This document shows, piece by piece, positions 6,907 through 41,996 of a stretch of DNA of 58,745 nucleotides (positions are counted from its first letter, which is position 1; every line of letters begins with the position of its first letter). Under the pieces are notes generated by a model. The model was not told the origin of the DNA, did not search any database, and was given only the letters and a program-made list of their open reading frames with translations. A program made the translations under genes and the position numbers. Location of the stretch: the IMG/VR virus record IMGVR_UViG_2531839662_000025; one strand, 5' to 3'. Origin of the DNA: a virus. Taxonomy: Duplodnaviria > Heunggongvirae > Uroviricota > Caudoviricetes.

Positions 6907-7961
6907 CAGAAATCCTCCTCAACATTTTTTTTCTTCCTGCCGGTAACAGGCTCGGGGAGATAAGCATCTGCCGGGCCAACCCGTAATTCAGTCGTCGTGC
7001 CCCGGTCGTCCTGGTTATAGGTGACTTCTGCGATCACCAGTTCATCATTATCAAAATTATTCAGCGGGTCGAAAACGATGACAGATAACCCCGGACGCCA
7101 TAACGCGCCACTGCCCTGCCGCCAGCCCTGAACCGTATATGTTGTCTCACGGGTAAGCGCAGCCCGTTGACGCGCTTCAAATTCACAACGGGCCTTACAG
7201 GTTGCTGTCGTTGCTGTGCCTGACTGCTGAATCAACAAAGGGCGATAACGGGTCACACCACTGTCCTGAATGGTCTGACGTATTGCGGCAATGGTGGCCT
7301 CACCAAAATCATCATCGTTGCCCGGGCGCTGCCCACTGACCTGATATTCAGAAAACCGCTCTCTGATGCTTCTTTCCGTATCACAGGAAAGAATATTCTC
7401 TCCCAGCACCAGTGCTGTCGCCGCTTTGCCTGTTCCGGTTTTCCCCAGAACCAGTCGACCGCATTCATCGTCATAAGCCAGCGTCTGAACCTGCCCCAGC
7501 AACCGGTTAAGACAATCGGCAACGGTTTCGCCGTGTTCCGGCTGGGCATCAATCACCGCTGTCTGCGGCACACCGGCGTCAACAACGGTGATGCCAAATG
7601 GCGCAGCCAGTTCACTGACGATTCTGAGCAGGTTTTTTCCGCTCTGCTGGACTGGCAAAGCAGAGCAGTCAACCAGATCGGCTGTTTTGCTTCGCCCGAC
7701 AATTCCCATGCTGACGCTGCTGGCGTCATAACGAAGCGGTAGAGCCTCCACATATCCGGTGAGCACGGGCTCATCCCCGATAAGCACTTCAACCAGCTCA
7801 CCATTTTTTATCCGGGGCTGATAATCCCGGCTTCCGGGCCAGCGGGTGGTAATGGCAACATTAAAATCCCGGGCAATACGGTTAATGCCCGCACTGATTC
7901 GGACGGATGTCCAGCCGCCCCATTCGCGACCAGAAACCCGAAGTAAAACGGTATTATTCAT
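6906..7961 (-). CDS. tail protein, Mu P-like (gp44-like)
   Basis: 351-aa ORF between N-like gene and baseplate genes. Confidence 0.6.
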   Translation of the reverse strand: MNNTVLLRVSGREWGGWTSVRISAGINRIARDFNVAITTRWPGSRDYQPRIKNGELVEVLIGDEPVLTGYVEALPLRYDASSVSMGIVGRSKTADLVDCSALPVQQSGKNLLRIVSELAAPFGITVVDAGVPQTAVIDAQPEHGETVADCLNRLLGQVQTLAYDDECGRLVLGKTGTGKAATALVLGENILSCDTERSIRERFSEYQVSGQRPGNDDDFGEATIAAIRQTIQDSGVTRYRPLLIQQSGTATTATCKARCEFEARQRAALTRETTYTVQGWRQGSGALWRPGLSVIVFDPLNNFDNDELVIAEVTYNQDDRGTTTELRVGPADAYLPEPVTGRKKKNVEEDF

Positions 7962-9349
7962 CTGACGGGTACCCTTAATGCCCTGATCGGAACAAAGCCC
8001 GGATGGGAGATGGCATTTCGATCCAGGATATCAGTTTCACGGGACGCATCGTCGTACCATGACGCAGCCAGAACAAGCGCAGGAAGAACCTCCGCTGGCG
8101 TTCGCTCTGCGGTCTCCTCCGTCTGAACCAGACGGGCCTGAATATCCCGGTTCAGTTCTGTACGTAATGACGTCAGCTGAAAAAACAGCCTGTCATCCGC
8201 CGCACGCCTGAGCTCCTGTTCAATCGCCGCGTTCAGCGATTCGCGTATGATGGTGAGATTTTCCCGCGTGGGTGGTTGCGCGGTCTCATCCTGCTCTGTG
8301 CTGGCTGCCACGCTGTCAAGCGCCGGATGAGAAACATGAATGATATCGGACTGACGTTCAGTGGAACCACCAACAGCCACAACCGCCTGCTGATTTTTCA
8401 CCAGACTTCCGGGTTGCGGCAGTGAAGTGACCGCCCTTGCAGCCTCGCTGATTGCCGTCGTCCGGATGACTGCAGCCACCAGATTTGTCTGCTGTTTTTG
8501 CCTGACAACCGATGCGGAATCTGTGGGCCACACAGCACGCGGTGCCAGTCCTGGATCCAGCGTAATACCTGACATTGTCGTTATGGACTGCACCAGATCC
8601 TGTGTGTTACCCACCAGTCTGGTTCCTGCCCGCCAGGTATCCTGCAACGTATGCACAAAATCACTGGCAACCGACGGCGGCATCAGAATGACGGATAAAT
8701 CGCCCTGCAGTAGTCTCGCTCCGGCAGAAACAGCCGAATTAACCATTTTGAAAGCTGTCTGAACGGTTCCCAGCATATCGGTTGCCCGGGCAATAACATC
8801 GTTCTGAATAAAGTCCGATATTCCCGCGAGATCAAAATCGCCGAACATGTCTTCAATCAGCTCATCCAGGAATCCGGACGACTCCTCCAGTTTTCTGGCG
8901 GTTGCGGCTCCGGCGACCGGGAATGACAGTTCCCCGCTCTCAACAAACTGAAATGAAACCCGGCACATACGGCCTTCCGTGCTGGAATGAGAAACGGTCA
9001 CCTGTCCGTCAATACAACCCTGCATTTCACCGAACTGCGGATGGATCAGTGTCCCCGGCCCGGCGGTTTCAATCGCGGTAATCAGCCTGTCGCGCTGCTC
9101 TGCGTAATCATCACCAACGAGATACGCATTAATCGTCAGCCGTCGCGTGGCACGCCCGAGATCTTCCGTGTACGGTTTGTCACGGTTTGGGTATTCATGG
9201 ACCTGAACGCGGCGTCCGAACGAACCCTCGTCGCTTTCCACCGAAAACGGAACGCCACGAAATGAAGCATCGTAAAGATTATCGCGCCAATTGATACCTG
9301 AAGATGCAGAAAGGAGTGAAGAAAGAGAAGGTAAAGAAGGTAAGTCCAT
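7958..9349 (-). CDS. tail protein, Mu N-like DNA circularization protein (gp43-like)
   Basis: 463-aa ORF following tape measure in Mu-like order. Confidence 0.6.
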   Translation of the reverse strand: MDLPSLPSLSSLLSASSGINWRDNLYDASFRGVPFSVESDEGSFGRRVQVHEYPNRDKPYTEDLGRATRRLTINAYLVGDDYAEQRDRLITAIETAGPGTLIHPQFGEMQGCIDGQVTVSHSSTEGRMCRVSFQFVESGELSFPVAGAATARKLEESSGFLDELIEDMFGDFDLAGISDFIQNDVIARATDMLGTVQTAFKMVNSAVSAGARLLQGDLSVILMPPSVASDFVHTLQDTWRAGTRLVGNTQDLVQSITTMSGITLDPGLAPRAVWPTDSASVVRQKQQTNLVAAVIRTTAISEAARAVTSLPQPGSLVKNQQAVVAVGGSTERQSDIIHVSHPALDSVAASTEQDETAQPPTRENLTIIRESLNAAIEQELRRAADDRLFFQLTSLRTELNRDIQARLVQTEETAERTPAEVLPALVLAASWYDDASRETDILDRNAISHPGFVPIRALRVPVR

Positions 9350-9362
9350 ACTGTCTCCACTA

Positions 9363-9390
9363 TAAAAAAACCGCCAATTTCTGGCGGCTT
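9363..9390 (-). terminator. rho-independent terminator after lipoprotein moron
   Basis: Minus-strand hairpin (CCGCCA/TGGCGG stem) followed by U-run, directly downstream of the 9396-9878 gene. Confidence 0.55.
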
Positions 9391-9395
9391 ATATA

Positions 9396-9878
9396 TTAAT
9401 CATCACTAATATCTTTCATATTCAATTTGCAATTTTCGTAGGTCACTCCAGACTCGCCATTAACATTAACTCCAGCTCTGATATTCCCGTTTTCTTTTAC
9501 ATCTACAAAAAACTGGCCTCTTGGCATCTTGAACACAAATGTAAAACCAACGGTATCTGAATCAAAATCATCATCTTTATATATTGGGATCAGATGTGTC
9601 ATCGTCGCTGGTGATGCATTGTTTGCAAAATCAAATACACCTATACTTTTGCCGAATTCATAAGAAGCTTTTCTCAATATAATCGCACCGCTGGCAGAAG
9701 GGGATGGGCACGATATCCTCAGTTGTCTGAATCCATCTGTATCCAAGTCAACATCATTATATGCAGATGCTTTAACGTTATTAACAAATCGTGAAGCAAT
9801 CTCCGCATTTGTTAGTGTTTTCGCCTGAGCACAGCAAGAGGTTAATATTGCAACTGTCATTAAAAATGGCTTTATCAC
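9396..9878 (-). CDS. predicted secreted lipoprotein (moron in tail module)
   Basis: 160-aa ORF with N-terminal signal peptide and lipobox (LTSC); AT-rich relative to flanking tail genes; own terminator. Confidence 0.6.
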   Translation of the reverse strand: MIKPFLMTVAILTSCCAQAKTLTNAEIASRFVNNVKASAYNDVDLDTDGFRQLRISCPSPSASGAIILRKASYEFGKSIGVFDFANNASPATMTHLIPIYKDDDFDSDTVGFTFVFKMPRGQFFVDVKENGNIRAGVNVNGESGVTYENCKLNMKDISDD

Positions 9879-9945
9879 AAAACAAACTCCATTGTTAGCA
9901 TGTTACGCGATAATTTTGCCTCATCTCTCACCACAAAAAAAGAAT

Positions 9946-11895
9946 TCACCTTTTAAATGGAGAATACCCAACGTCATGGGTGATTTTCATAAAGGGATCG
10001 CCTGTTTTCGGCAAATCGATGACACGCATTCCCGGCGGCGCGTTGTCAAACGTCACCTTAAGTTCGCTGCGGGTTGCCGGTGACGATGAAAGGCTTAACA
10101 GTTGATTCCTTTCCAGTGATACATTCGGGATGTAGCGTTTATCTGGAGATAAATACCCATCACCACGTGGCATCTGCCATCCGGTCATGTCATAGACAAA
10201 ATCATGGAACTGTTTGCCCCACTCGTCGAACTTATCATTCAGACCAAATCCACTATTCAGTGCATCAGCCACAAAATTTTTAACAAGCCAGGGATGTTCT
10301 TTTTCAAACTCCTGCGCCATCATGCCCAGTTCAAGCAATCCACCAATCAGACTGATCTTACCAAGCCCCTTTAATTTCAGCGCCGTTTTTCCTGCCGCCG
10401 TTGTCCATTGATTCTGGGCGACTGTTGCTGCACGAATGGCTGCCACCGCTTTCACACCAATATACAGGGCAGAAACCGTTGCTATTGTTTTTACTGCCTG
10501 TTCCCATCCCCCCATTGCCCTGACAACCTGATCAACCTCCTGCCAGACTTTTTTCACAACCGGCCCGACCGTTTCCCAGTTGTCAATAATGAGATACGCC
10601 CCCGCTACCAGTAACGTAATGAGTCCCTTTGCCGGTGTCATATTCATCACGCTACCCATGATTTTTGTTATGCGTGTCAATGTGCCAATCGCCACGCCCA
10701 TCGTCAGTAATGCCGCACCAGTTTTCGCGATGGTTTTTACGACATCAGGATTTTCTCTGACAAACGTGCGCACTTCTTCCAGAAAAGGCTTCATCTCTTT
10801 TATGCCTTCATTGATTGAAGGCAGGAAGGTTTCCCCCAACGTGGAAGAAATCGCATTGATCTGGTTCTGCAGCAGCAACAACTGATTTTCCGTCGTCGCG
10901 GCACGGGCGGCATATTCTTTCTGCATTGAGCCGCCATACTGCTGCGCATCCGCCACACGATTAAAATTGGTTCGCAACAAATCCAGATTCGTGAGCAGCG
11001 GCGCAATGGCTCCCAGAGACTCCTTCCCGAACAGCGCATTAAGCACAGCAGCCTGTTTTTCTTTCGGCACTTTCGCCAGAGAATCCAGTACGTGCAGCAT
11101 GGCCCCACGGGCGTCTTTCTGCATATCCGCCGCCAGTTTTTTCGGGTCAATGCGCAACAGGCGAAGCGCTTTTTTCTGCGATTTGGTGGCAGAATTCCCC
11201 GCAGTCAGCGACAGCATAAAATTCTTTATCCCCGTCGCAGCAATTTCTGATTCCACCCCCATTCCGGCAATGGTTGCCCCCATTGCGGCAATCTCTCCGG
11301 AGGCCACACCCGCAACACTGCCTAAAGGGCCAATACGGGTCACAACATCAGAAATCTTTTTCGCACTCGCAGGACCGGTATTACCAAGATAGTTAATCTT
11401 GTCCGCAAGCCCTGCCACCTCTCCCTGTGTCAGTTTAAAGGCAGTGCGCCACTGTGCCATCATCTGACCGGATTCTTCCGCCGTGGTGTCAAAGGCCACC
11501 CCCATCTTCACGGCGTCGTCAGTAAACTGCATCAGCTCGTCACGGGCGATGCCAGCCTGACCACCCGCCGCCACGATTTCGGCGATACCTTCCGCCGACA
11601 TGGGCAGTTCTGTTGACAGGTCGCGCACCTGTTCCGTCATTGCCTTAAACGCTTCCGGCGTATCCAGACCATCCACCACTTTCCGGACATCCGCCATTTT
11701 TGATTCAAGGGCAATGGCAGATTTGACCGGGAGCGCCAGCGCCCCCAGTACTGCGGTTCCGGCACCCGCTGCGCCCAGTGACAGGCTGGCAAACTCCTTT
11801 TTAAAACCTTTCAGCTGGCGCTGCATTCCCTTCAGCGGTGCCGATACCTTATCCACGGCAGTGATGATCGCCTTCAGCTGAAAACTGTCAGCCAT
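9946..11895 (-). CDS. tail tape measure protein
   Basis: 649-aa Ala/Gly-rich ORF between tail chaperone and N-like gene. Confidence 0.8.
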   Translation of the reverse strand: MADSFQLKAIITAVDKVSAPLKGMQRQLKGFKKEFASLSLGAAGAGTAVLGALALPVKSAIALESKMADVRKVVDGLDTPEAFKAMTEQVRDLSTELPMSAEGIAEIVAAGGQAGIARDELMQFTDDAVKMGVAFDTTAEESGQMMAQWRTAFKLTQGEVAGLADKINYLGNTGPASAKKISDVVTRIGPLGSVAGVASGEIAAMGATIAGMGVESEIAATGIKNFMLSLTAGNSATKSQKKALRLLRIDPKKLAADMQKDARGAMLHVLDSLAKVPKEKQAAVLNALFGKESLGAIAPLLTNLDLLRTNFNRVADAQQYGGSMQKEYAARAATTENQLLLLQNQINAISSTLGETFLPSINEGIKEMKPFLEEVRTFVRENPDVVKTIAKTGAALLTMGVAIGTLTRITKIMGSVMNMTPAKGLITLLVAGAYLIIDNWETVGPVVKKVWQEVDQVVRAMGGWEQAVKTIATVSALYIGVKAVAAIRAATVAQNQWTTAAGKTALKLKGLGKISLIGGLLELGMMAQEFEKEHPWLVKNFVADALNSGFGLNDKFDEWGKQFHDFVYDMTGWQMPRGDGYLSPDKRYIPNVSLERNQLLSLSSSPATRSELKVTFDNAPPGMRVIDLPKTGDPFMKITHDVGYSPFKR

Positions 11896-14328: not shown

Positions 14329-14892
14329 TTATTTCTGAGGGAAACTCATTTCCAGATGGTGCTCAAAGTCACCATCCGGGCCAGTACCAGGATCAATGTA
14401 ATCCACATCAATACTCAGCAGAGATAAATCCGGCAGAGCATTCACGTCCTCTGCCTGTCGCGTGTCTTCTTCCGTGATTTCATACTTCGCCGTAAAATCA
14501 AACTGGTAATACAGTTCGTAACGGTTCAGATCCAGCAGCGTGCCACCGGCATAAACAATCTCGCCCCCCTGCGGGTCCGGCATCCACCCAAGCAGGGCTT
14601 TCCAGAGTTCTCTACGGACATCATGAACGGCGTCATAGGCTGCCCACTGCCCTTTTTCATCACGCTCATTGCTGAGCACAACAATAACGGAGAAGCCTTC
14701 TGTCAAATCCTGCCAGTAATCGGTCTGTGATTTTTGTTCCCCCGGCGCATCGTCAGAGGGGACAACATAGGCAGCAGGCAGACGCAGTTTTCCGGCATCA
14801 GGGATCGCCTTAAACTGCGCTGCACCACCAACACGATTCTCAAAACGCGGGCATCGCTCACGCAACGCCGCAATTATTGTTGTCAGTTTCAT
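14329..14892 (-). CDS. virion/tail-completion protein (Mu gp37-like)
   Basis: 187-aa ORF between neck genes and sheath; function inferred from position. Confidence 0.45.
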   Translation of the reverse strand: MKLTTIIAALRERCPRFENRVGGAAQFKAIPDAGKLRLPAAYVVPSDDAPGEQKSQTDYWQDLTEGFSVIVVLSNERDEKGQWAAYDAVHDVRRELWKALLGWMPDPQGGEIVYAGGTLLDLNRYELYYQFDFTAKYEITEEDTRQAEDVNALPDLSLLSIDVDYIDPGTGPDGDFEHHLEMSFPQK

Positions 14893-23106: not shown

Positions 23107-23547
23107 TCAGTCATCATCGCCATACATCCAGTCGTTACGATGTGCCGCCCGTTCTTCCTGCTCGCGATACATACCCGCCTTACGGTTCGCTTTCGTGGCT
23201 GGATCTTCCCGTGTCGTCTTACGGTTGTGGCACGTCTGGCACAATGCCTGGTGGTTCCACTCAGGCCAGAAGAGAACATCACCGCCGCCATTGATGGGAA
23301 TGATGTGATCCACCACAAGAGCTGGCGTATAAATCCCCTTAGCCAGACAACGCACGCATAACGGGTTTTTGCTCAGGTACAGGGCGCGGTATTTGTCCCA
23401 CTGTCGGGAATACCCGCGCGCGCGGCGGTGTCCCCGTCTGGCATCCTCTGCACGCCATGCAGCCCGCCTGTGCTCTTCACACTTGCCGGACTTCACGCGC
23501 TTATTACAGCCCGGCTCAGTGCATCGCCTTAATGGTTGCCACGGCAT
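23107..23547 (-). CDS. HNH endonuclease (packaging-associated)
   Basis: 146-aa ORF with Cys and His motifs, adjacent to TerS as in HK97-like cos phages. Confidence 0.75.
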   Translation of the reverse strand: MPWQPLRRCTEPGCNKRVKSGKCEEHRRAAWRAEDARRGHRRARGYSRQWDKYRALYLSKNPLCVRCLAKGIYTPALVVDHIIPINGGGDVLFWPEWNHQALCQTCHNRKTTREDPATKANRKAGMYREQEERAAHRNDWMYGDDD

Positions 23548-23846
23548 CAGTACACCCCCACATCACGATAAACCGACCAGAGCGCAGAAATAGCCATAGG
23601 CAGTTCAGACTGCTCCACTGGTGAAACTGCTTCCCTGTTCTCGTACAGGAAAGCGATGTACATCAGGCAACCAACACGCATTGCCGGGGTAAATTCCAGC
23701 CCGTCTTCAAAACGTTTCCCGATATGCTTCTGGCAGGCTTCCAGCGCCGCATCGGTATACATTTTCAGAAGTTCGCCTTCTCCGGAAAAGTCATCAAGGC
23801 GAAGATGTGCCCTGACCTCATCAGGTGTAATTTTTTCTTCACTCAT
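23547..23846 (-). CDS. head-tail connector protein (gp6-like)
   Basis: Track ORF 23547-23927; likely start MSEEKIT at 23846. Confidence 0.6.
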   Translation of the reverse strand: MSEEKITPDEVRAHLRLDDFSGEGELLKMYTDAALEACQKHIGKRFEDGLEFTPAMRVGCLMYIAFLYENREAVSPVEQSELPMAISALWSVYRDVGVY

Positions 23847-25053
23847 CTTTTTCACCTTTAATTTCCACCGTCTGCTTCCATGCCTGGCTGAATTCGTCGC
23901 CACCTTCGCGCGGCGGCATCCCCTCACGTTCGCGGGCTTCGTTCGGATTCATGATCCCGTTCTTAATCCCTTTCTCATACGTGGCGTAACGCTCGGTAGG
24001 GGTGGCGCGCAGTAAATCGGCTGAATCAAACTCAACCAGATAACGGGTACCAGGTACGGGAGAAGCCACCAGCAAAGCGGCCTTGATTTGCTGTTCGAAG
24101 TTCGCCAGCCACGGACGCATTGTCATAGTCAGAAACGCGCGGCTTGCCTCACTGAAATTGCTGTAGGTGCTGTTGCTGTATTCCTGAAGAAAAATCGGCG
24201 ACACGTTGAACATACGGGCAATGTCTTCAATGGAGAAGCGACGGGAGGCCAGCCATTCCGCATCCTGGTTACTCATCCCCAGTTGCCTGTAATCCATGCC
24301 CCCTTCAAGGATTGGCGTTTTTCCGGCATTTTTCGCCCCCTTATAGCGTTCCAGAGCATCTAATGCCTGTTTACCTTTCACGCCGTCCAGCCATTCGCCT
24401 GACGTGATAATCCCTGCCGCCATCATGCCATCTTTCATAATGCTGGCTCCGTGGCGCTGTTGAGCAAGGCCAAGCCCCAGCGCCTCACGGCAAATCGTGA
24501 CAGGGGAGCGCCCCAGAAAGCCATCATCCGAGGCATAGCGGAGATGCAGAACTTCTTCCTGTAAATACGTGCGTACCGTTCCTGTATAGGGTTCGGTGAT
24601 GGTATAGCGGTATTTGTGTGCGCCTGTGCGTTCCGGTACAACACACCCCGGCGCATAAGGATGAAGTGATTTTGGCTGACCGTCCCGCCCCCACTCAATA
24701 ACCGCATAGGCGTTACCGTTCAGCAGGCAGTGACGCATCATTGTGCGTTTAAACTGGTAAGGTGTCTGGCACGAATTAGGCTGCTCATTCAGCAGAATAT
24801 CGACCGGGTGACTGTCCAGCCATTCCCGCGCCTCCCTGCCCTTGTCATTGCGTACCAGATACAGATAACACGGCATCGTGGCCACCGCCTCAGCGATGAC
24901 AGAAACCGCGTTCATCACAGCAGGCAATGATTCAGCCGTCCCGGCAGAAACATATTCTCCGGATCCGGTATTCGGTACGCCGGACAGCGCCAGAAAATCA
25001 TCAATGGACAGGTTACGCAGATCGCTTTTTTTACGACTAAAAGGCCACCACAT
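23839..25053 (-). CDS. portal protein (satellite-encoded)
   Basis: Track ORF 23839-25143; likely start at 25053 abutting protease stop. Confidence 0.8.
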   Translation of the reverse strand: MWWPFSRKKSDLRNLSIDDFLALSGVPNTGSGEYVSAGTAESLPAVMNAVSVIAEAVATMPCYLYLVRNDKGREAREWLDSHPVDILLNEQPNSCQTPYQFKRTMMRHCLLNGNAYAVIEWGRDGQPKSLHPYAPGCVVPERTGAHKYRYTITEPYTGTVRTYLQEEVLHLRYASDDGFLGRSPVTICREALGLGLAQQRHGASIMKDGMMAAGIITSGEWLDGVKGKQALDALERYKGAKNAGKTPILEGGMDYRQLGMSNQDAEWLASRRFSIEDIARMFNVSPIFLQEYSNSTYSNFSEASRAFLTMTMRPWLANFEQQIKAALLVASPVPGTRYLVEFDSADLLRATPTERYATYEKGIKNGIMNPNEAREREGMPPREGGDEFSQAWKQTVEIKGEKDE

Positions 25054-25054
25054 A

Positions 25055-25615
25055 TCACAACCCCGCCAGTTCAGCCCAGCGATGACGATTATTTCCTGTC
25101 GGGCGTAATTCAGGGTGCTGTGCAAACAACGAACGGTGGGCAATCTCCACGCCGGATTCGGGATAAGCAGGCATCGACGTTATCGTGATTTCACGGAGTT
25201 CTGCGGCGGTAACAGTGCGCAGATACGGTTTTTGCGCGATATTCCACTCTTCGCATAATGCGCGAAAGCCAAAGCTCATTCCTGTAATGTCGCCACGCTC
25301 CACCAGCGTAAGCACATCTTTTCCAAGCTGGGTATCAGGCGGTGTCAGTTCAAAACGTAGCCCGGTGTTGTCCTCAGTCAGTACCAGTGTTCCGGATTTG
25401 GTGCGCCCCAGCAGTCGGGTATAGTCATGCTCATACAGGCAGCGCACATCATTACCCGCCGCCAGATAGTCAGCAAAAGCCCCCGGCGTGAACTGTTCGC
25501 GGAATTCGTCCCAGATAATTTCTGAAAGGCTGTTCCAGCGAACGGCATAACCCACCAGTTTTTTATCGCTGGCGGTCAGTTCAGATGTACGGATTTCAAA
25601 ATCGGTATTTTGCAT
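25055..25615 (-). CDS. prohead protease (HK97 family, satellite-encoded)
   Basis: Track ORF 25055-25831; likely start MQNTDFEI at 25615. Confidence 0.75.
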   Translation of the reverse strand: MQNTDFEIRTSELTASDKKLVGYAVRWNSLSEIIWDEFREQFTPGAFADYLAAGNDVRCLYEHDYTRLLGRTKSGTLVLTEDNTGLRFELTPPDTQLGKDVLTLVERGDITGMSFGFRALCEEWNIAQKPYLRTVTAAELREITITSMPAYPESGVEIAHRSLFAQHPELRPTGNNRHRWAELAGL

Positions 25616-25664
25616 CGGTGTACTCCATAAAGCTGAAAAAGGAGGCCGAAGCCCCCTTTGCTCA

Positions 25665-26810
25665 TTACTTGCCAGCCTGAATTTCCAGAATCTTGATGGC
25701 GTTCGAATCCACCACACCACCGCCCAGATATTTCTGGGTATAGATGTTAATGAATCCAGGTTCGCTGAAATCCAGACGGGTACGCGTACCGGTTTCATGG
25801 TCAACGATGAAATAACCGCGCTTAAAGTCACCTACTGCAATCACACCGTCCGGCATAAATTCCAGATATTCAACCGGAAGCCCCAGCAGAGAATCAGGAT
25901 CACCAGCCTGTAAACGATCGCGCCAGATGTAATCACCAGTGGCATTTTTCAGTTTTTGTGCGGAGGCGGCTGTATTTGAGTTCATCACCCATACAGCTTT
26001 TTTGCGGTACTTATTGCGCAGCGTAAATTTCAGGTCAATCAGCATGTCGGCGCTGAGACTGCCAGTAACTTTTTTCGTCTGGAGCGTACCGAAAGGACGG
26101 GTTTTGTCGTTATCCGCAGTGCGCGGAAAAGCCAGGAAACCTTTAGCTTTTTTCTCGCCATCACCGGAAACCAGATCCGTTTCTTCGGTATCAACGAAAG
26201 TGTCGCCAATTTCAGAAGATAACCAGCCCATAATATCGACTTCGGAAAAATCGATAATTTCCTGAGTGGTTTTCGGGTAAGCGTAGATCGGATACAGGCG
26301 GATACTGACTTCATTCAGTTTTGGTGTTGCCGTCTGGTTACGTGCCGCACCTTCTTCGCCGTGTTCAACGACCGCACCCCCGGCAGAAACCAATTGCTTA
26401 AATTCATTGCTGTGAATGGTTTTAACAGTACAGATTTTACGCATCACCGATTCATCAGAAAGCTGACGCATAATTTCTCTGTTCAGTTCCGGGATAACCG
26501 TATAACCACCATCAGCCGGGACACTGCCGGACAGGTTGCGGGTTTCCCCGGTCAGAATGTAAGAGCGCAGTTCGTCTTTGGTTATTTTCTCTTCGACGGA
26601 AACACCAGGCTGGTTACGTTCTTCATCAGCCACAGATTCGAGGCGGGAAATTTCTGTGTCGAGGGAATCGGCTTTTGCACGCAGTTCATCAAACTGTTTG
26701 CCCTCGTCATCGTTCAGGCTGCGGTTTTCACTGTCGGCTTTTTCCAGCAGGGATCGCATCTGGTTTTTCAGGGCGGTTTTTTGCTGGCGGAGTTCGATTA
26801 ATTTCTTCAT
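25665..26810 (-). CDS. major capsid protein (HK97 fold, satellite-encoded)
   Basis: 381-aa ORF with N-terminal coiled-coil; related in pattern to the host prophage MCP. Confidence 0.85.
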   Translation of the reverse strand: MKKLIELRQQKTALKNQMRSLLEKADSENRSLNDDEGKQFDELRAKADSLDTEISRLESVADEERNQPGVSVEEKITKDELRSYILTGETRNLSGSVPADGGYTVIPELNREIMRQLSDESVMRKICTVKTIHSNEFKQLVSAGGAVVEHGEEGAARNQTATPKLNEVSIRLYPIYAYPKTTQEIIDFSEVDIMGWLSSEIGDTFVDTEETDLVSGDGEKKAKGFLAFPRTADNDKTRPFGTLQTKKVTGSLSADMLIDLKFTLRNKYRKKAVWVMNSNTAASAQKLKNATGDYIWRDRLQAGDPDSLLGLPVEYLEFMPDGVIAVGDFKRGYFIVDHETGTRTRLDFSEPGFINIYTQKYLGGGVVDSNAIKILEIQAGK

Positions 26811-27614: not shown

Positions 27615-27902
27615 CTACCGTTTCACGGGATCACGCATTCTGCGCCTTATTTTCCACAGATATTCGATCATCGCTTCCACCTGCTCACGGTTGGTTGCGA
27701 AAATTTCCCCGGTCAGTGAGCTACGCAGAAAATCATGATGATCCACAAAAAATAACGCATCGGAAGAAAGCAGCCGGCGATATTTTTTTACTGTCGTGGT
27801 TTCCAGATCATCAAAACCATGAAACTTTTTATGTTGCTGAACTTCTTCAAATGTCACAGGCATGTTTCCTCCTGCTACCACGATACCAGAAACAGTTAAC
27901 AA
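27615..27902 (-). CDS. hypothetical protein
   Basis: Track ORF; likely start MPVTFEEV at 27863. Confidence 0.4.
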   Translation of the reverse strand: MLTVSGIVVAGGNMPVTFEEVQQHKKFHGFDDLETTTVKKYRRLLSSDALFFVDHHDFLRSSLTGEIFATNREQVEAMIEYLWKIRRRMRDPVKR

Positions 27903-28204
27903 CCGTTATCAATTATCCCCTTTTTTTTCGGGTAGTTCCTGAACATCTCACCGCCAGGTTTCTGTAAGCCCATCCCGGTATGTGTGCGGTTTATGGCCTC
28001 TTTCAGTATTCCGAAATTATCCGGTATGACTGGTTGGCGCGCTGCCTTACGGATACATTCCGCGCGACGCTTTGCCACCTGTTCGCGCTCCTTGTCAGTG
28101 CTCACCAGCCACATAACATCAGCCCAACGTGCCGCCGCTCTCCGGTACAGCCCTTTAGCCTCCAGTTCTTCCGCTTTGCTGTCTTTAATCATGCTGTACC
28201 TCAC
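27896..28204 (-). CDS. PerC-family transcriptional activator homolog
   Basis: About 100 aa containing AEELEAKGLYRRAAARWADVM, the PerC/Pch signature as I recall it. Confidence 0.55.
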   Translation of the reverse strand: MRYSMIKDSKAEELEAKGLYRRAAARWADVMWLVSTDKEREQVAKRRAECIRKAARQPVIPDNFGILKEAINRTHTGMGLQKPGGEMFRNYPKKKGIIDNGC

Positions 28205-28207
28205 TGC

Positions 28208-28633
28208 TTAAAACGGTATCCCGTCCCCGTACGGATCATCGTGCTGGCCTGTCTGTTGTTTTGCCCTGTTCAGTGCGTCAGTAGCCTGGCCCTGCTGGCC
28301 TTTTTTGCCGCCCGGTCGCGCCGTTCGCGCACTGATTACGCTGTCTGCGATGACCTGCCAGCCCTGCCGCATTTCGCCGTTCTGGCCTGTCCACTGGCTT
28401 ACCTGCATGTTACCCGCCACACTCACCAGTTCGCCTTTCTGGTGTTTTGCCAGTGCATCGGCCTGTCTGCCAAACGCCAGGACGGATAACCACATCGTCG
28501 CCGTTCCGTCATCTGCCTGGCTGCACGGCAGGGGAACCGCCATACTCGCCATAGCCATTTGTGTCCCCTTGCTGGTGGTCTTTAACTGCGGGTCAGCCAC
28601 CAGCCGCCCGTAAGCCGCTATCTGTGCTGTCAT
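28208..28633 (-). CDS. single-stranded DNA-binding protein-like
   Basis: 141-aa ORF with Gly/Gln-rich linker and acidic C-terminal tail ending DGIPF. Confidence 0.55.
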   Translation of the reverse strand: MTAQIAAYGRLVADPQLKTTSKGTQMAMASMAVPLPCSQADDGTATMWLSVLAFGRQADALAKHQKGELVSVAGNMQVSQWTGQNGEMRQGWQVIADSVISARTARPGGKKGQQGQATDALNRAKQQTGQHDDPYGDGIPF

Positions 28634-28696
28634 GCTGTCTGTTCTCCGGTTTTAACGTTGATTGTTACGCTTGTTTACACCCTTACGGTGAAATTC

Positions 28697-28820
28697 TGCG
28701 GGTTATAATCGCACTTTTGCGGGTTATAACTGCCGTTTTGCGGGTTACGTGCGGGTTATTGATTTCCTTTTTATTCATACAGTTAATGCACTTATACACA
28801 GGATAACCCGCATAACCCGC
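28697..28820. repeat. putative satellite replication origin: GCGGGTTAT iterons at 21-bp spacing plus inverted copies
   Basis: Direct copies at 28697, 28718, 28739, 28751; inverted at 28803, 28812; immediately downstream of primase. Confidence 0.65.
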
Positions 28821-40424: not shown

Positions 40425-40601
40425 AATGGTTCTTCGGGAGAGCGATATCACCGATGAACAGGAGTTCCCCTCAGAACCGTTGCGCATAATAACGGGCAAA
40501 AAAATTACTTCAACCAAAATAATCCGAAAATAATCCCGGATTTGTAAATATATGCATATGTTTTTATTTTTTCTGAAATAAAGAAATTACCAAATACACA
40601 T

Positions 40602-41648
40602 TTAACGATTATTTTTTATTTCAGTTACAGTCTGATTAAATCTCTCTTCTTCCAGTTCCACGCCAACCGCACGCCTTCCCAGCGATAATGCTGCTTTTAT
40701 TGTTGACCCCGACCCCATAAAAAAATCAGCAACCAAATCACCCGGACGACTGCTGGCCTCAATTATCTGCCGCAACATACCCGCCGGTTTTTCACAGGGA
40801 TGTTTGCCCGGATAAAACTGTACAGGTTTATGCGTCCAGACATCCGTATAAGGAACAGCTGCCGATACGGAAAAATAACGCCGCAGGGATTTGTACTCTT
40901 CCAGCAGGCTGGCATATTGCCGGTTCAGTTCACTGTATGTACTGACCAGCTGATGGTGTGACTTTTCCAGTTCCCCGCGCTGATGTTTTTCTGCCGCAAC
41001 ACGCGCAAACAACGCCTGCAATTTGTTGTAATCACCCTCGTTCGGCAACTGCCACTGACTGGTACCAAACCAGTGTGACGCCATGTTTTTCTTTCCGGTG
41101 GCTTCCGCTATCTGTTTCGATGTTACCCCCAGTGAATCACGCGCATCACGAAAGTAAGAAATCAGCGGGGCCATGACGTGCTGTTTAAGCTCGCGCCCCT
41201 TTGCCGCACAGCCGTCATGTTTGGGCTGATATGGCCCCTGATAATGTTCGGCAAACAGAATGCGCTCTGTTGCCGGGAAATACGCCCGCAGGCTTTCCTT
41301 GTTGCAGCCATTCCAGCGTCCGGACGGCTTCGCCCAGATAATATGGTTCAGCACATTAAAGCGTTCACGCATCATTATTTCGGTATCAGATGCCAGGCGA
41401 TGACCACAGAACAGGTAAAGACTTCCGGCAGGCTTCAGTACACGCCAGAACTGCGCCAGACACTGGTCCAGCCATTTCAGGTAATCATCGTCACCCTTCC
41501 ACTGATTATCCCAGCCCTCGGGCTTCACTTTAAAGTATGGCGGGTCTGTGACTATCAGATCGACAGAGTTTTCCGGTAAGGTCTGGATAAATTCCAGGCA
41601 ATCAGCGTTGATTAACTCACAACTGGATATTTTTACAGTATTAGCCAT
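40602..41648 (-). CDS. DNA methyltransferase (amino-methyltransferase, DPPY motif)
   Basis: 348-aa ORF with DPPY catalytic motif and SAM-binding FMGSGST-like motif; no adjacent restriction gene. Confidence 0.75.
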   Translation of the reverse strand: MANTVKISSCELINADCLEFIQTLPENSVDLIVTDPPYFKVKPEGWDNQWKGDDDYLKWLDQCLAQFWRVLKPAGSLYLFCGHRLASDTEIMMRERFNVLNHIIWAKPSGRWNGCNKESLRAYFPATERILFAEHYQGPYQPKHDGCAAKGRELKQHVMAPLISYFRDARDSLGVTSKQIAEATGKKNMASHWFGTSQWQLPNEGDYNKLQALFARVAAEKHQRGELEKSHHQLVSTYSELNRQYASLLEEYKSLRRYFSVSAAVPYTDVWTHKPVQFYPGKHPCEKPAGMLRQIIEASSRPGDLVADFFMGSGSTIKAALSLGRRAVGVELEEERFNQTVTEIKNNR

Positions 41649-41798
41649 AGATCAATAAGCACTTCTCTGATAGGCTCATACCGCTTTTGCGCAAAGCAGA
41701 TGGGCCTGAGGTTTGCTTGTGACCCCAACGCATGAGCAAATGGCTGGCAGGTGCCGCTAACACCCACCAGCCGCCCATTACCACAAATTAAAAAGCCT

Positions 41799-41996
41799 TC
41801 ACTGCGGAAGGCGTCTGTAACAACCGAACTGATAATCTGCCAGACCCGCCATAACAAGCTGGGTCAGTATTAACTGGCAGCGTTCGCGTGAAAGGTAAGT
41901 ATTCTGCGCAATTTCCCCGACGGTCGCCGGTTCGGTGACGCTTAATTCATTAAACACCACTCTGGCGGTTTCGGTCATATCCTGCTGTTTTAGCAT
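41799..41996 (-). CDS. hypothetical protein
   Basis: 65-aa ORF downstream of the late-promoter terminator. Confidence 0.35.
   Translation of the reverse strand: MLKQQDMTETARVVFNELSVTEPATVGEIAQNTYLSRERCQLILTQLVMAGLADYQFGCYRRLPQ

Follow-up and report, generated by a model that had tools for sequence, protein, structure and literature searches.

An optional AT-rich gene for a predicted exported protein in the tape-measure/N slot of a Mu-like tail module

Between the tape-measure gene and the gene for the N-like protein in the Mu-like tail module of the viral sequence IMGVR_UViG_2531839662_000025 (58,745 nucleotides (nt); subsequently designated the window) lies an AT-rich open reading frame (ORF) for a protein of 160 amino acids (aa). 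Comparison with related phages and prophages indicates that this gene is optional cargo and dispensable to the tail module. Its product carries a predicted signal peptide and is modelled as a small β-barrel. We tentatively regard the gene as moron-type cargo, whose exported product would act at the envelope to block the entry of related phages; of the explanations considered this one accounts best for the data, at a confidence that falls short of even.

The slot between the tape-measure gene and the N gene is usually empty in relatives of the window. Only 15 nt separate the two genes in phiP27 as well as in E. coli STEC276 and ETEC1732; the distance is 33 nt in ST64B and 45 nt in SfV. The cargo gene is absent from the records of phiP27, SfV, SfI, SfII, SfIV, ST64B and YeP1-3. 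When 34 IMG/VR loci anchored on the N gene were inspected, the slot was empty in 22 cases, carried the cargo gene in seven and another cargo in one, and could not be scored in the remaining four. Phage records with a related N protein contained a homologue in 1 out of 32 cases, namely in vB_EcoM-720R4, where the gene is 47% identical and occupies the same slot. Among 50 complete E. coli genomes with the related module, the cargo gene was present in 11. Across 5426 complete E. coli genomes, the allele of the window type (lineage A) was present in 11 and the allele of the 720R4 type (lineage B) in 101. Since the gene is missing in phiP27, SfV, ST64B and most close relatives, its product is not a structural part of the tail. 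These data bear out a preceding reading of the window made from the letters and ORFs alone (subsequently designated the sequence-only reading), in which the gene had been taken for a non-structural addition at a place where Mu-like tails normally have nothing. Insertion sequence IS1 (InsA/InsB) was observed in or beside the gene in some copies, as at L018:5052-6000 (identical to L061) and in E. coli PEC122 (hit H77); the L018 copy is cut off by IS1 after approximately codon 34. At the Shigella locus L011, the gene is followed by insertion sequences and an ipaH-like gene in place of N.

The slot is occupied by the gene in four diverged tail lineages. Compared to the window, identities of the cargo gene, the tape measure, N and P amount to 74%, 80%, 67% and 73% in the Yersinia lineage, to 47%, 71%, 53% and 63% in the 720R4-type lineage, and to 40–46%, 52–54%, 49–52% and about 60% in a third lineage from IMG/VR. 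Divergence of the cargo gene runs parallel to that of its neighbours in the tail module. Because the same slot is occupied in four diverged lineages and divergence tracks the neighbours, the comparison identifies the gene as an old and often-lost resident of the slot and not as a recent arrival. Hence, the sequence-only reading of an inserted moron was right in describing optional, AT-rich and exported cargo, but the notion of a recent insertion event has to be given up.

The slot may also hold a different gene. At L053:1920-2375 (+) of IMGVR_UViG_2189573020_000003, an unrelated gene for 151 aa with a GC content of 0.36 is located at the same position between tape measure and N. The L053 protein is a canonical lipoprotein (MKKALIILSCLFCLAGC-D...) that exhibits no similarity to the window protein and belongs to no Pfam or PHROG family; its lipobox reads ...CLAGC-D, and the Asp residue is an inner-membrane retention signal. 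When the slots of the window and L053 are aligned, upstream similarity ends at the tape-measure stop codon. A mosaic joint at the slot is also seen upon comparison of 720R4 with SfV, which share 97.8% DNA identity from approximately 70 nt inside N onwards and possess unrelated tape-measure genes. Tape-measure alleles of related loci were found to be either ~98% or ~76–80% identical to that of the window (9946-11895), and N was ~97% identical throughout, with or without cargo. The joining of varied tape-measure alleles to a near-constant N points to repeated recombination at the junction. Overall, the slot appears to follow the order tape-measure stop codon, AT-rich cargo, conserved intrinsic terminator and ribosome-binding site (RBS) of N.

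Three further arrangements were noticed in the course of these comparisons. In the third tail lineage, a second variable slot is present between N and P, which accommodates ~1.9 kb with ORFs for 523 and 94 aa (L039:7844-9699; also L040-L042, L045, L047 and L049). Two distant homologues of the cargo gene (24–30% identity) reside outside tail operons on phage-plasmid-like contigs (L006:815-6604 and L005:1-2626), where the neighbouring genes encode an IncFII-type RepA, ParA, a CI-like repressor and a MazEF pair (MazE/PemK); the L006 copy has a GC content of 0.52, i.e. it is not AT-rich. At the metagenomic locus L009:2387-3423, a HIRAN-domain gene (195 aa) and a further homologue of the cargo gene both follow the tape-measure gene.

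The 160-aa ORF on the minus strand (9396-9878) is a real gene, as had been proposed. It starts with GTG, is preceded by an RBS and corresponds to the RefSeq coding sequence WP_000594910.1 ("hypothetical protein"). The protein matches PHROG 5586, a small family from phages of Enterobacterales that is annotated as being of unknown function, over the full length (E 1.3e-85; residues 1-160 align to positions 1-161 of the 161-position profile), and distant homologues likewise match this family. The reading frame remains intact in homologues ranging from 99% to ~40% identity, residue C57 is nearly invariant and C150 invariant in the alignments, and the stretches SASG, YEF, MPRGQFFVDV and AGVN..GESG are conserved. 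Conserved blocks and cysteines together with a frame that is intact down to ~40% identity, as well as the family match, exclude a chance ORF. The claim of AT-richness was also confirmed: the GC content of the ORF is 0.37 versus 0.48 and 0.53 in the 1-kb flanks, and across 9350-9949 it is 0.36–0.39 versus 0.53–0.57 further out in the tail genes. This property recurs in every tail-slot lineage, with 0.34–0.40 in the gene versus 0.45–0.56 in its surroundings.

The family is small also when much larger collections are considered. A word-indexed search of 5.8 billion proteins returned eight clusters and a profile search of the same proteins 14 clusters; of 1.84 billion representatives scanned exhaustively with HMMER, 14 reached E<=0.001. 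Named members originate from E. coli, Shigella, Salmonella, Yersinia and Pantoea and are all designated "hypothetical protein" or "phage protein". A repeat protein of 1633 aa (P0017), which matched in seven weak stretches, was set aside, as this seems to be a compositional match to immunoglobulin-like repeats. Scans with Pfam (E<=0.1), NCBIfam and PADLOC gave no match for the 160-aa protein, a sequence-profile search of the PDB detected nothing at E<=10, Foldseek searches against PDB and BFVD revealed nothing below E 0.01, and tblastn against 50,697 phage records produced vB_EcoM-720R4 as the sole match. A description of the protein was not found in the literature on WP_000594910.1, on morons of SfV and phiP27 or on periplasmic exclusion proteins.

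Every full-length homologue possesses an N-terminal signal peptide ending in AxA/K or similar (the slash marks the cleavage site), suggesting that periplasmic export is a family-wide trait. In the window protein, the N-terminus is MIKPFLMTVAILTSCCAQA/KT. Translation of the ORF reads M-I-K-PFLMTVAI-L-T-S-C15, in which L12-T13-S14-C15 fits the lipobox pattern [LVI][ASTVI][GAS]C when this is applied by eye; Cys15 is encoded by nt 9834-9836. Together with the short hydrophobic signal peptide and the basic N-region, this makes C15 a candidate lipobox cysteine. Position 15 is the lower limit at which lipobox cysteines usually occur. An equally good site for signal peptidase I is provided by A17-Q18-A19, four residues past Cys15, and the AQA/K column aligns with the cleavage sites of the Cys-free signal peptides in all other lineages. 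The latter end in ...LPLNSFA/KP (vB_EcoM-720R4 type), ...TTFA/KQ, ...ITLA/KT, ...ISFA/KD, ...LAIA/KD and ...PALA/KA. Cysteines in the signal peptide are confined to the window-type alleles of E. coli/Shigella and to that of Yersinia (LISCCSQA/Q). According to the alignments the lipobox cysteine is not conserved: the signal peptides of lineages B and C and of the phage-plasmid copies contain no cysteine. Since LTSC is restricted to the E. coli/Shigella/Yersinia sublineage and overlaps the family-wide AxA site, lipidation of the window allele is uncertain and stands at about even odds; lipid anchoring would be at best a novelty of this sublineage. Thus, the signal peptide and the lipobox pattern of the sequence-only reading are both present, but the lipobox is not a trait of the family and AQA/K overlaps it.

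A structural model of the protein was obtained with AlphaFold2 from an alignment of 12 sequences (mean predicted local distance difference test (pLDDT) 84; predicted template-modelling score (pTM) 0.78). It comprises a helix (residues 24-41) and eight strands between residues 52 and 152. One of the two conserved cysteines is placed just past strand 1 and the other in strand 8. As strands 1 and 8 would adjoin in a closed barrel, a disulfide between C57 and C150 that closes the barrel is likely in this model. Altogether, homology searches placed the protein in PHROG 5586, but neither these nor the structure searches brought up a specific relative.

Directly past the stop codon of the cargo gene, a hairpin (9390..9368, minus strand) is followed by a T7/U7 run. 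The terminator folds with -14 kcal/mol (z = -4.4), and 0 of 200 shuffled sequences were as stable. The hairpins of the window and of L053 are near-identical (ACCGCCAGAATCGGCGG-T7 and GCCGCCAGAAATTGGCGG-T7, respectively), and all occupied lineages carry a terminator just before the RBS of N. GC-rich terminator-like hairpins with a T run are also present in empty slots, i.e. in SfV (L085:2541-2585), ST64B (L087:2547-2579), L079, L080 and L084; no terminator-like hairpin was found in the empty 15-nt junction of the phiP27 type. Since near-identical or similar hairpins accompany the unrelated L053 cargo and the empty slots of SfV and ST64B, the terminator appears to be a property of the junction rather than of the cargo gene, as judged from the sequences compared. 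Accordingly, the gene is followed by a strong hairpin as had been stated, but this terminator is probably not its own. The hairpins in empty slots may have been left behind by lost cargo, or they may act as a conserved attenuator or terminator within the tail operon.

No sigma-70-like promoter was detected 5' of the gene; the sole consensus-like site in 9200-10200 is located inside the ORF. A scan of 300 nt upstream at 10 loci revealed nothing conserved apart from one weak match within the coding sequence of the tape measure, and phages with an empty slot have this match as well. These scans addressed sigma-70-like sites, and weak or non-sigma-70 promoters could remain. The cargo gene is placed within the Q-dependent late operon and has a good RBS. 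In lambdoid phages, the Q-modified polymerase reads through terminators in lytic growth.

Table 1. Coordinates of the cargo gene, its signals and its neighbours in the window.
Feature	Position	Strand	Basis
Coding sequence of the 160-aa protein (predicted to be exported)	9396..9878	-	ORF list; PHROG 5586 match; RefSeq coding sequence; AlphaFold2 model
Predicted signal peptide, codons 1-19 (MIKPFLMTVAILTSCCAQA), LTSC overlapping AQA/K	9822..9878	-	read from translation; AxA/K aligned with Cys-free lineages
GGAG RBS, 8 nt 5' of the GTG start	9887..9890	-	read from sequence
67-nt spacer from tape-measure stop to cargo gene	9879..9945	-	without consensus promoter
Tape-measure protein, 649 aa, upstream neighbour	9946..11895	-	Pfam PhageMin_Tail 6e-44; PHROG 28
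Mu N (gp43)-like DNA-circulation/baseplate hub protein, 463 aa, downstream neighbour	7958..9349	-	Pfam DNA_circ_N 3.4e-36; PHROG 184; 97% identity to phiP27 L48
Intrinsic terminator (GCCGCCAG-AAAUU-GGCGG... stem + U7), just 5' of the GGAG RBS of the N gene	9361..9390	-	fold, slot comparison

The window is identical to the chromosome of E. coli UMNF18, a porcine enterotoxigenic (ETEC) strain, in which the prophage is integrated at yecD/yecE. It represents a lambdoid prophage of the phiP27/SfV type with a Mu-like tail and encodes a Q antiterminator, a replicative helicase, a LexA-family repressor, an HK97-type head and a P27-family small terminase. The N protein shares 97% identity with its counterpart in the Stx2e phage phiP27 and ~53% with the counterparts in SfV, SfI, SfII and SfIV, and homologues of Mu P, gp45, gp46 and gp47 are encoded beyond the N gene. 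By its gene content the prophage is therefore lambdoid with a Mu-like tail: the designation Mu-like applies to the tail but not to the phage overall, which has a Q antiterminator and an HK97-type head. RefSeq flags frameshifts in the integrase (40586-41898), the M15 endolysin (23243-23621) and the tail terminator (14329-14890) genes; in the ORF list 14329-14892 is open and encodes 187 aa, and the tail-terminator flag may reflect comparison with longer homologues. A gene annotated as porin OmpC is located at 27688-28770 (+), on the strand opposite to the late genes and between the genes for the Q antiterminator and a DNA methyltransferase. This ompC-annotated gene may be another envelope-modifying cargo of the prophage. 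According to RefSeq, a TerB-family gene, a DUF3927 gene, tRNA-Gly and tRNA-Thr are present at 24518-25671 between the lysis genes and the methyltransferase gene.

Morons in the sense of Juhala and Hendrix are extra DNA segments that are present in some but not in other collinear phages, deviate in composition, carry their own promoter and terminator and are expressed from the prophage (PMC3594210). The window gene shares with them the presence or absence in collinear genomes and the deviating base composition. An own promoter was found neither in 9200-10200 nor at the 10 loci scanned, and the strong terminator 3' of the gene is a hairpin that other cargo and some empty slots have in common. 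The closest functional precedent would be HK97 gp15, a moron beside the tape-measure gene which acts at the inner membrane and causes superinfection exclusion that depends on the incoming tail (Cumby et al. 2012, as summarised in PMC3594210). Both are optional genes of deviating composition in the tail operon of a lambdoid E. coli phage, adjoin the tape-measure gene and have a product that is, or is predicted to be, located in the envelope. However, gp15 resides in the inner membrane and is encoded upstream of the tape measure of a siphovirus, whereas the window protein has a signal peptide, is predicted to be a soluble or lipid-anchored β-barrel and showed no sequence similarity to gp15 in the tblastn search of 50,697 phage records.

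Other exported phage proteins resemble the window protein in part. Cor of phi80, N15 and HK022 and Llp of T5 are outer-membrane lipoproteins that inactivate FhuA and block entry at the envelope. They are likewise small, exported and encoded among or near tail genes, and the window allele is possibly lipid-anchored as well; however, they do not match the window protein in sequence, and the lipobox is not conserved in PHROG 5586. P1 Sim and T4 Spackle are periplasmic phage proteins that are processed by signal peptidase I and act after adsorption. Relatives within PHROG 5586 also occur on phage-plasmid-like contigs, which is reminiscent of this pair, but sequence similarity is missing, and Spackle is a helical protein whereas the window protein is modelled as a β-barrel. 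An assignment as o-spanin was rejected: the protein is too long, lacks a membrane segment at its C-terminus and is encoded away from the lysis cassette, and the lipobox is missing in most homologues. Pfam, NCBIfam and PADLOC scans and tblastn against the phage records detected no similarity to Cor, Llp, Bor, Lom/Ail, TraT, Imm, Sp, SieA, Sim, HK97 gp15 or defence systems.

Taken together, we favour, if tentatively, a function as blocker of related phages; the superinfection exclusion or surface modification put forward in the sequence-only reading is likewise a guess. In our view, the SfV/phiP27-type Mu-like tail module would have a dedicated slot for moron-type cargo, and the gene would be one of its optional occupants. 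Its product would be exported by the Sec pathway, with the signal peptide being removed by signal peptidase I at AQA/K or, alternatively, with lipidation at Cys15, and would fold in the periplasm into a protein of ~15 kDa consisting of an N-terminal helix and an eight-stranded up-and-down β-barrel. Barrels of this kind usually bind ligands or proteins and seldom act as catalysts, which suggests a binding role. The barrel would bind an envelope component or a component of the incoming tail (tape measure, N, spike or receptor), and entry of related phages would thereby be blocked. In the lysogen, the terminator would keep cargo transcription out of the baseplate genes; in lytic growth, it would be read through by the Q-modified polymerase. 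The gene, its export signal, the class of fold, the dispensability and the layout of the slot are shown by the data above; it is the disulfide, the expression in the lysogen, the binding and the exclusion that we infer.

Several observations weigh against this proposal. Searches of Pfam, NCBIfam, PADLOC and PDB as well as Foldseek and tblastn did not connect the protein with any known exclusion protein, either in sequence or through a specific structural resemblance. The terminator is no evidence for an autonomous unit, since hairpins of this type also occur in SfV and ST64B, where the slot is empty. A promoter was found upstream in no lineage, and the gene may be expressed from the late operon only. 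Within lineages, the ratio of nonsynonymous to synonymous substitution rates (dN/dS) is fairly high, ranging from 0.2 to 0.9, and is based on few substitutions, which fits weak constraint and diversifying pressure alike. Finally, the frameshifts that RefSeq annotates in integrase, endolysin and tail terminator make the prophage copy in UMNF18 a probably defective one, which gives no information on current use of the gene in this strain.

The absence of a promoter and the location of the gene in frame order within the Q-dependent late operon, downstream of a good RBS, would suit a protein that is expressed late and masks the receptor or the envelope like Llp of T5, sparing progeny phages from attaching to the dying cell and its debris, with exclusion by the lysogen being secondary or absent. 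The place beside the tail genes, which is kept in four lineages, is also in agreement with such a role. However, most relatives, including cultured phages, do without the gene, and the phage-plasmid-like homologues reside outside any late operon. We consider this explanation improbable. It is somewhat easier to envisage, although still unlikely, that the gene increases fitness of the host by lysogenic conversion, as Bor and Lom of lambda do. In this case, the product, a binder in the periplasm or anchored to the outer membrane, would help the lysogen in the animal gut, for instance by making it adhere or by protecting it against serum, bile or antimicrobial proteins. The protein resembles neither Bor, Lom/Ail and TraT nor any family in Pfam or NCBIfam, the gene is rare in E. 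coli (the 11 and 101 genomes given above) with no evident link to a pathotype, and the parallel divergence of gene and tail module is easier to explain with a partner that is related to the phage.

A further rival reading is that of a periplasmic inhibitor of a peptidoglycan hydrolase, similar to MliC/PliC, which might be directed against animal c-type lysozyme or, as T4 Spackle is against gp5, against the wall-degrading activity of an incoming tail. This is a long shot: for MliC/PliC (PF09864) there was no Pfam match at E<=0.1 and no PDB match at E<=10, hhalign returned a probability of 0.08%, the window protein carries an additional helix at its N-terminus, and its barrel has the motif at another position. 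A role in structure or assembly of the contractile tail could be advocated because the gene has stayed between tape measure and N in four diverged lineages and has diverged in step with its neighbours. Yet this role is hardly credible and, by sequence comparison, already contradicted: the protein has a Sec signal peptide, the gene is absent from phiP27, SfV, SfI, SfII, SfIV, ST64B and most close relatives, an unrelated lipoprotein gene can replace it, IS1 interrupts some copies and homologues exist outside tail operons. The blocking of related phages thus remains the function we prefer. In a bolder form, which we deem doubtful, the members of PHROG 5586 would form a new family that blocks phage entry in the periplasm by recognising what Mu-type contractile tails eject (tape measure, N or spike). 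They would co-diverge with their own tail module and be encoded in a dedicated exchangeable slot ahead of a conserved terminator, which also hosts genes for other exported anti-phage or envelope proteins, for instance the L053 lipoprotein.

In terms of what is already known, the gene is an ordinary uncharacterised moron, and the phenomenon has been familiar since HK97 gp15. The 160-aa protein is nonetheless a reasonable candidate for exclusion screens. If it is an entry blocker, it would constitute a structurally new periplasmic exclusion factor for temperate phages with contractile tails from E. coli, Shigella and Salmonella, and it would offer a handle on what Mu-like tails expose in the periplasm upon injection. 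The slot itself, composed of the tape-measure stop codon, swappable AT-rich cargo for exported proteins and a conserved terminator, is a simple and searchable place for prophage genes that act at the envelope.
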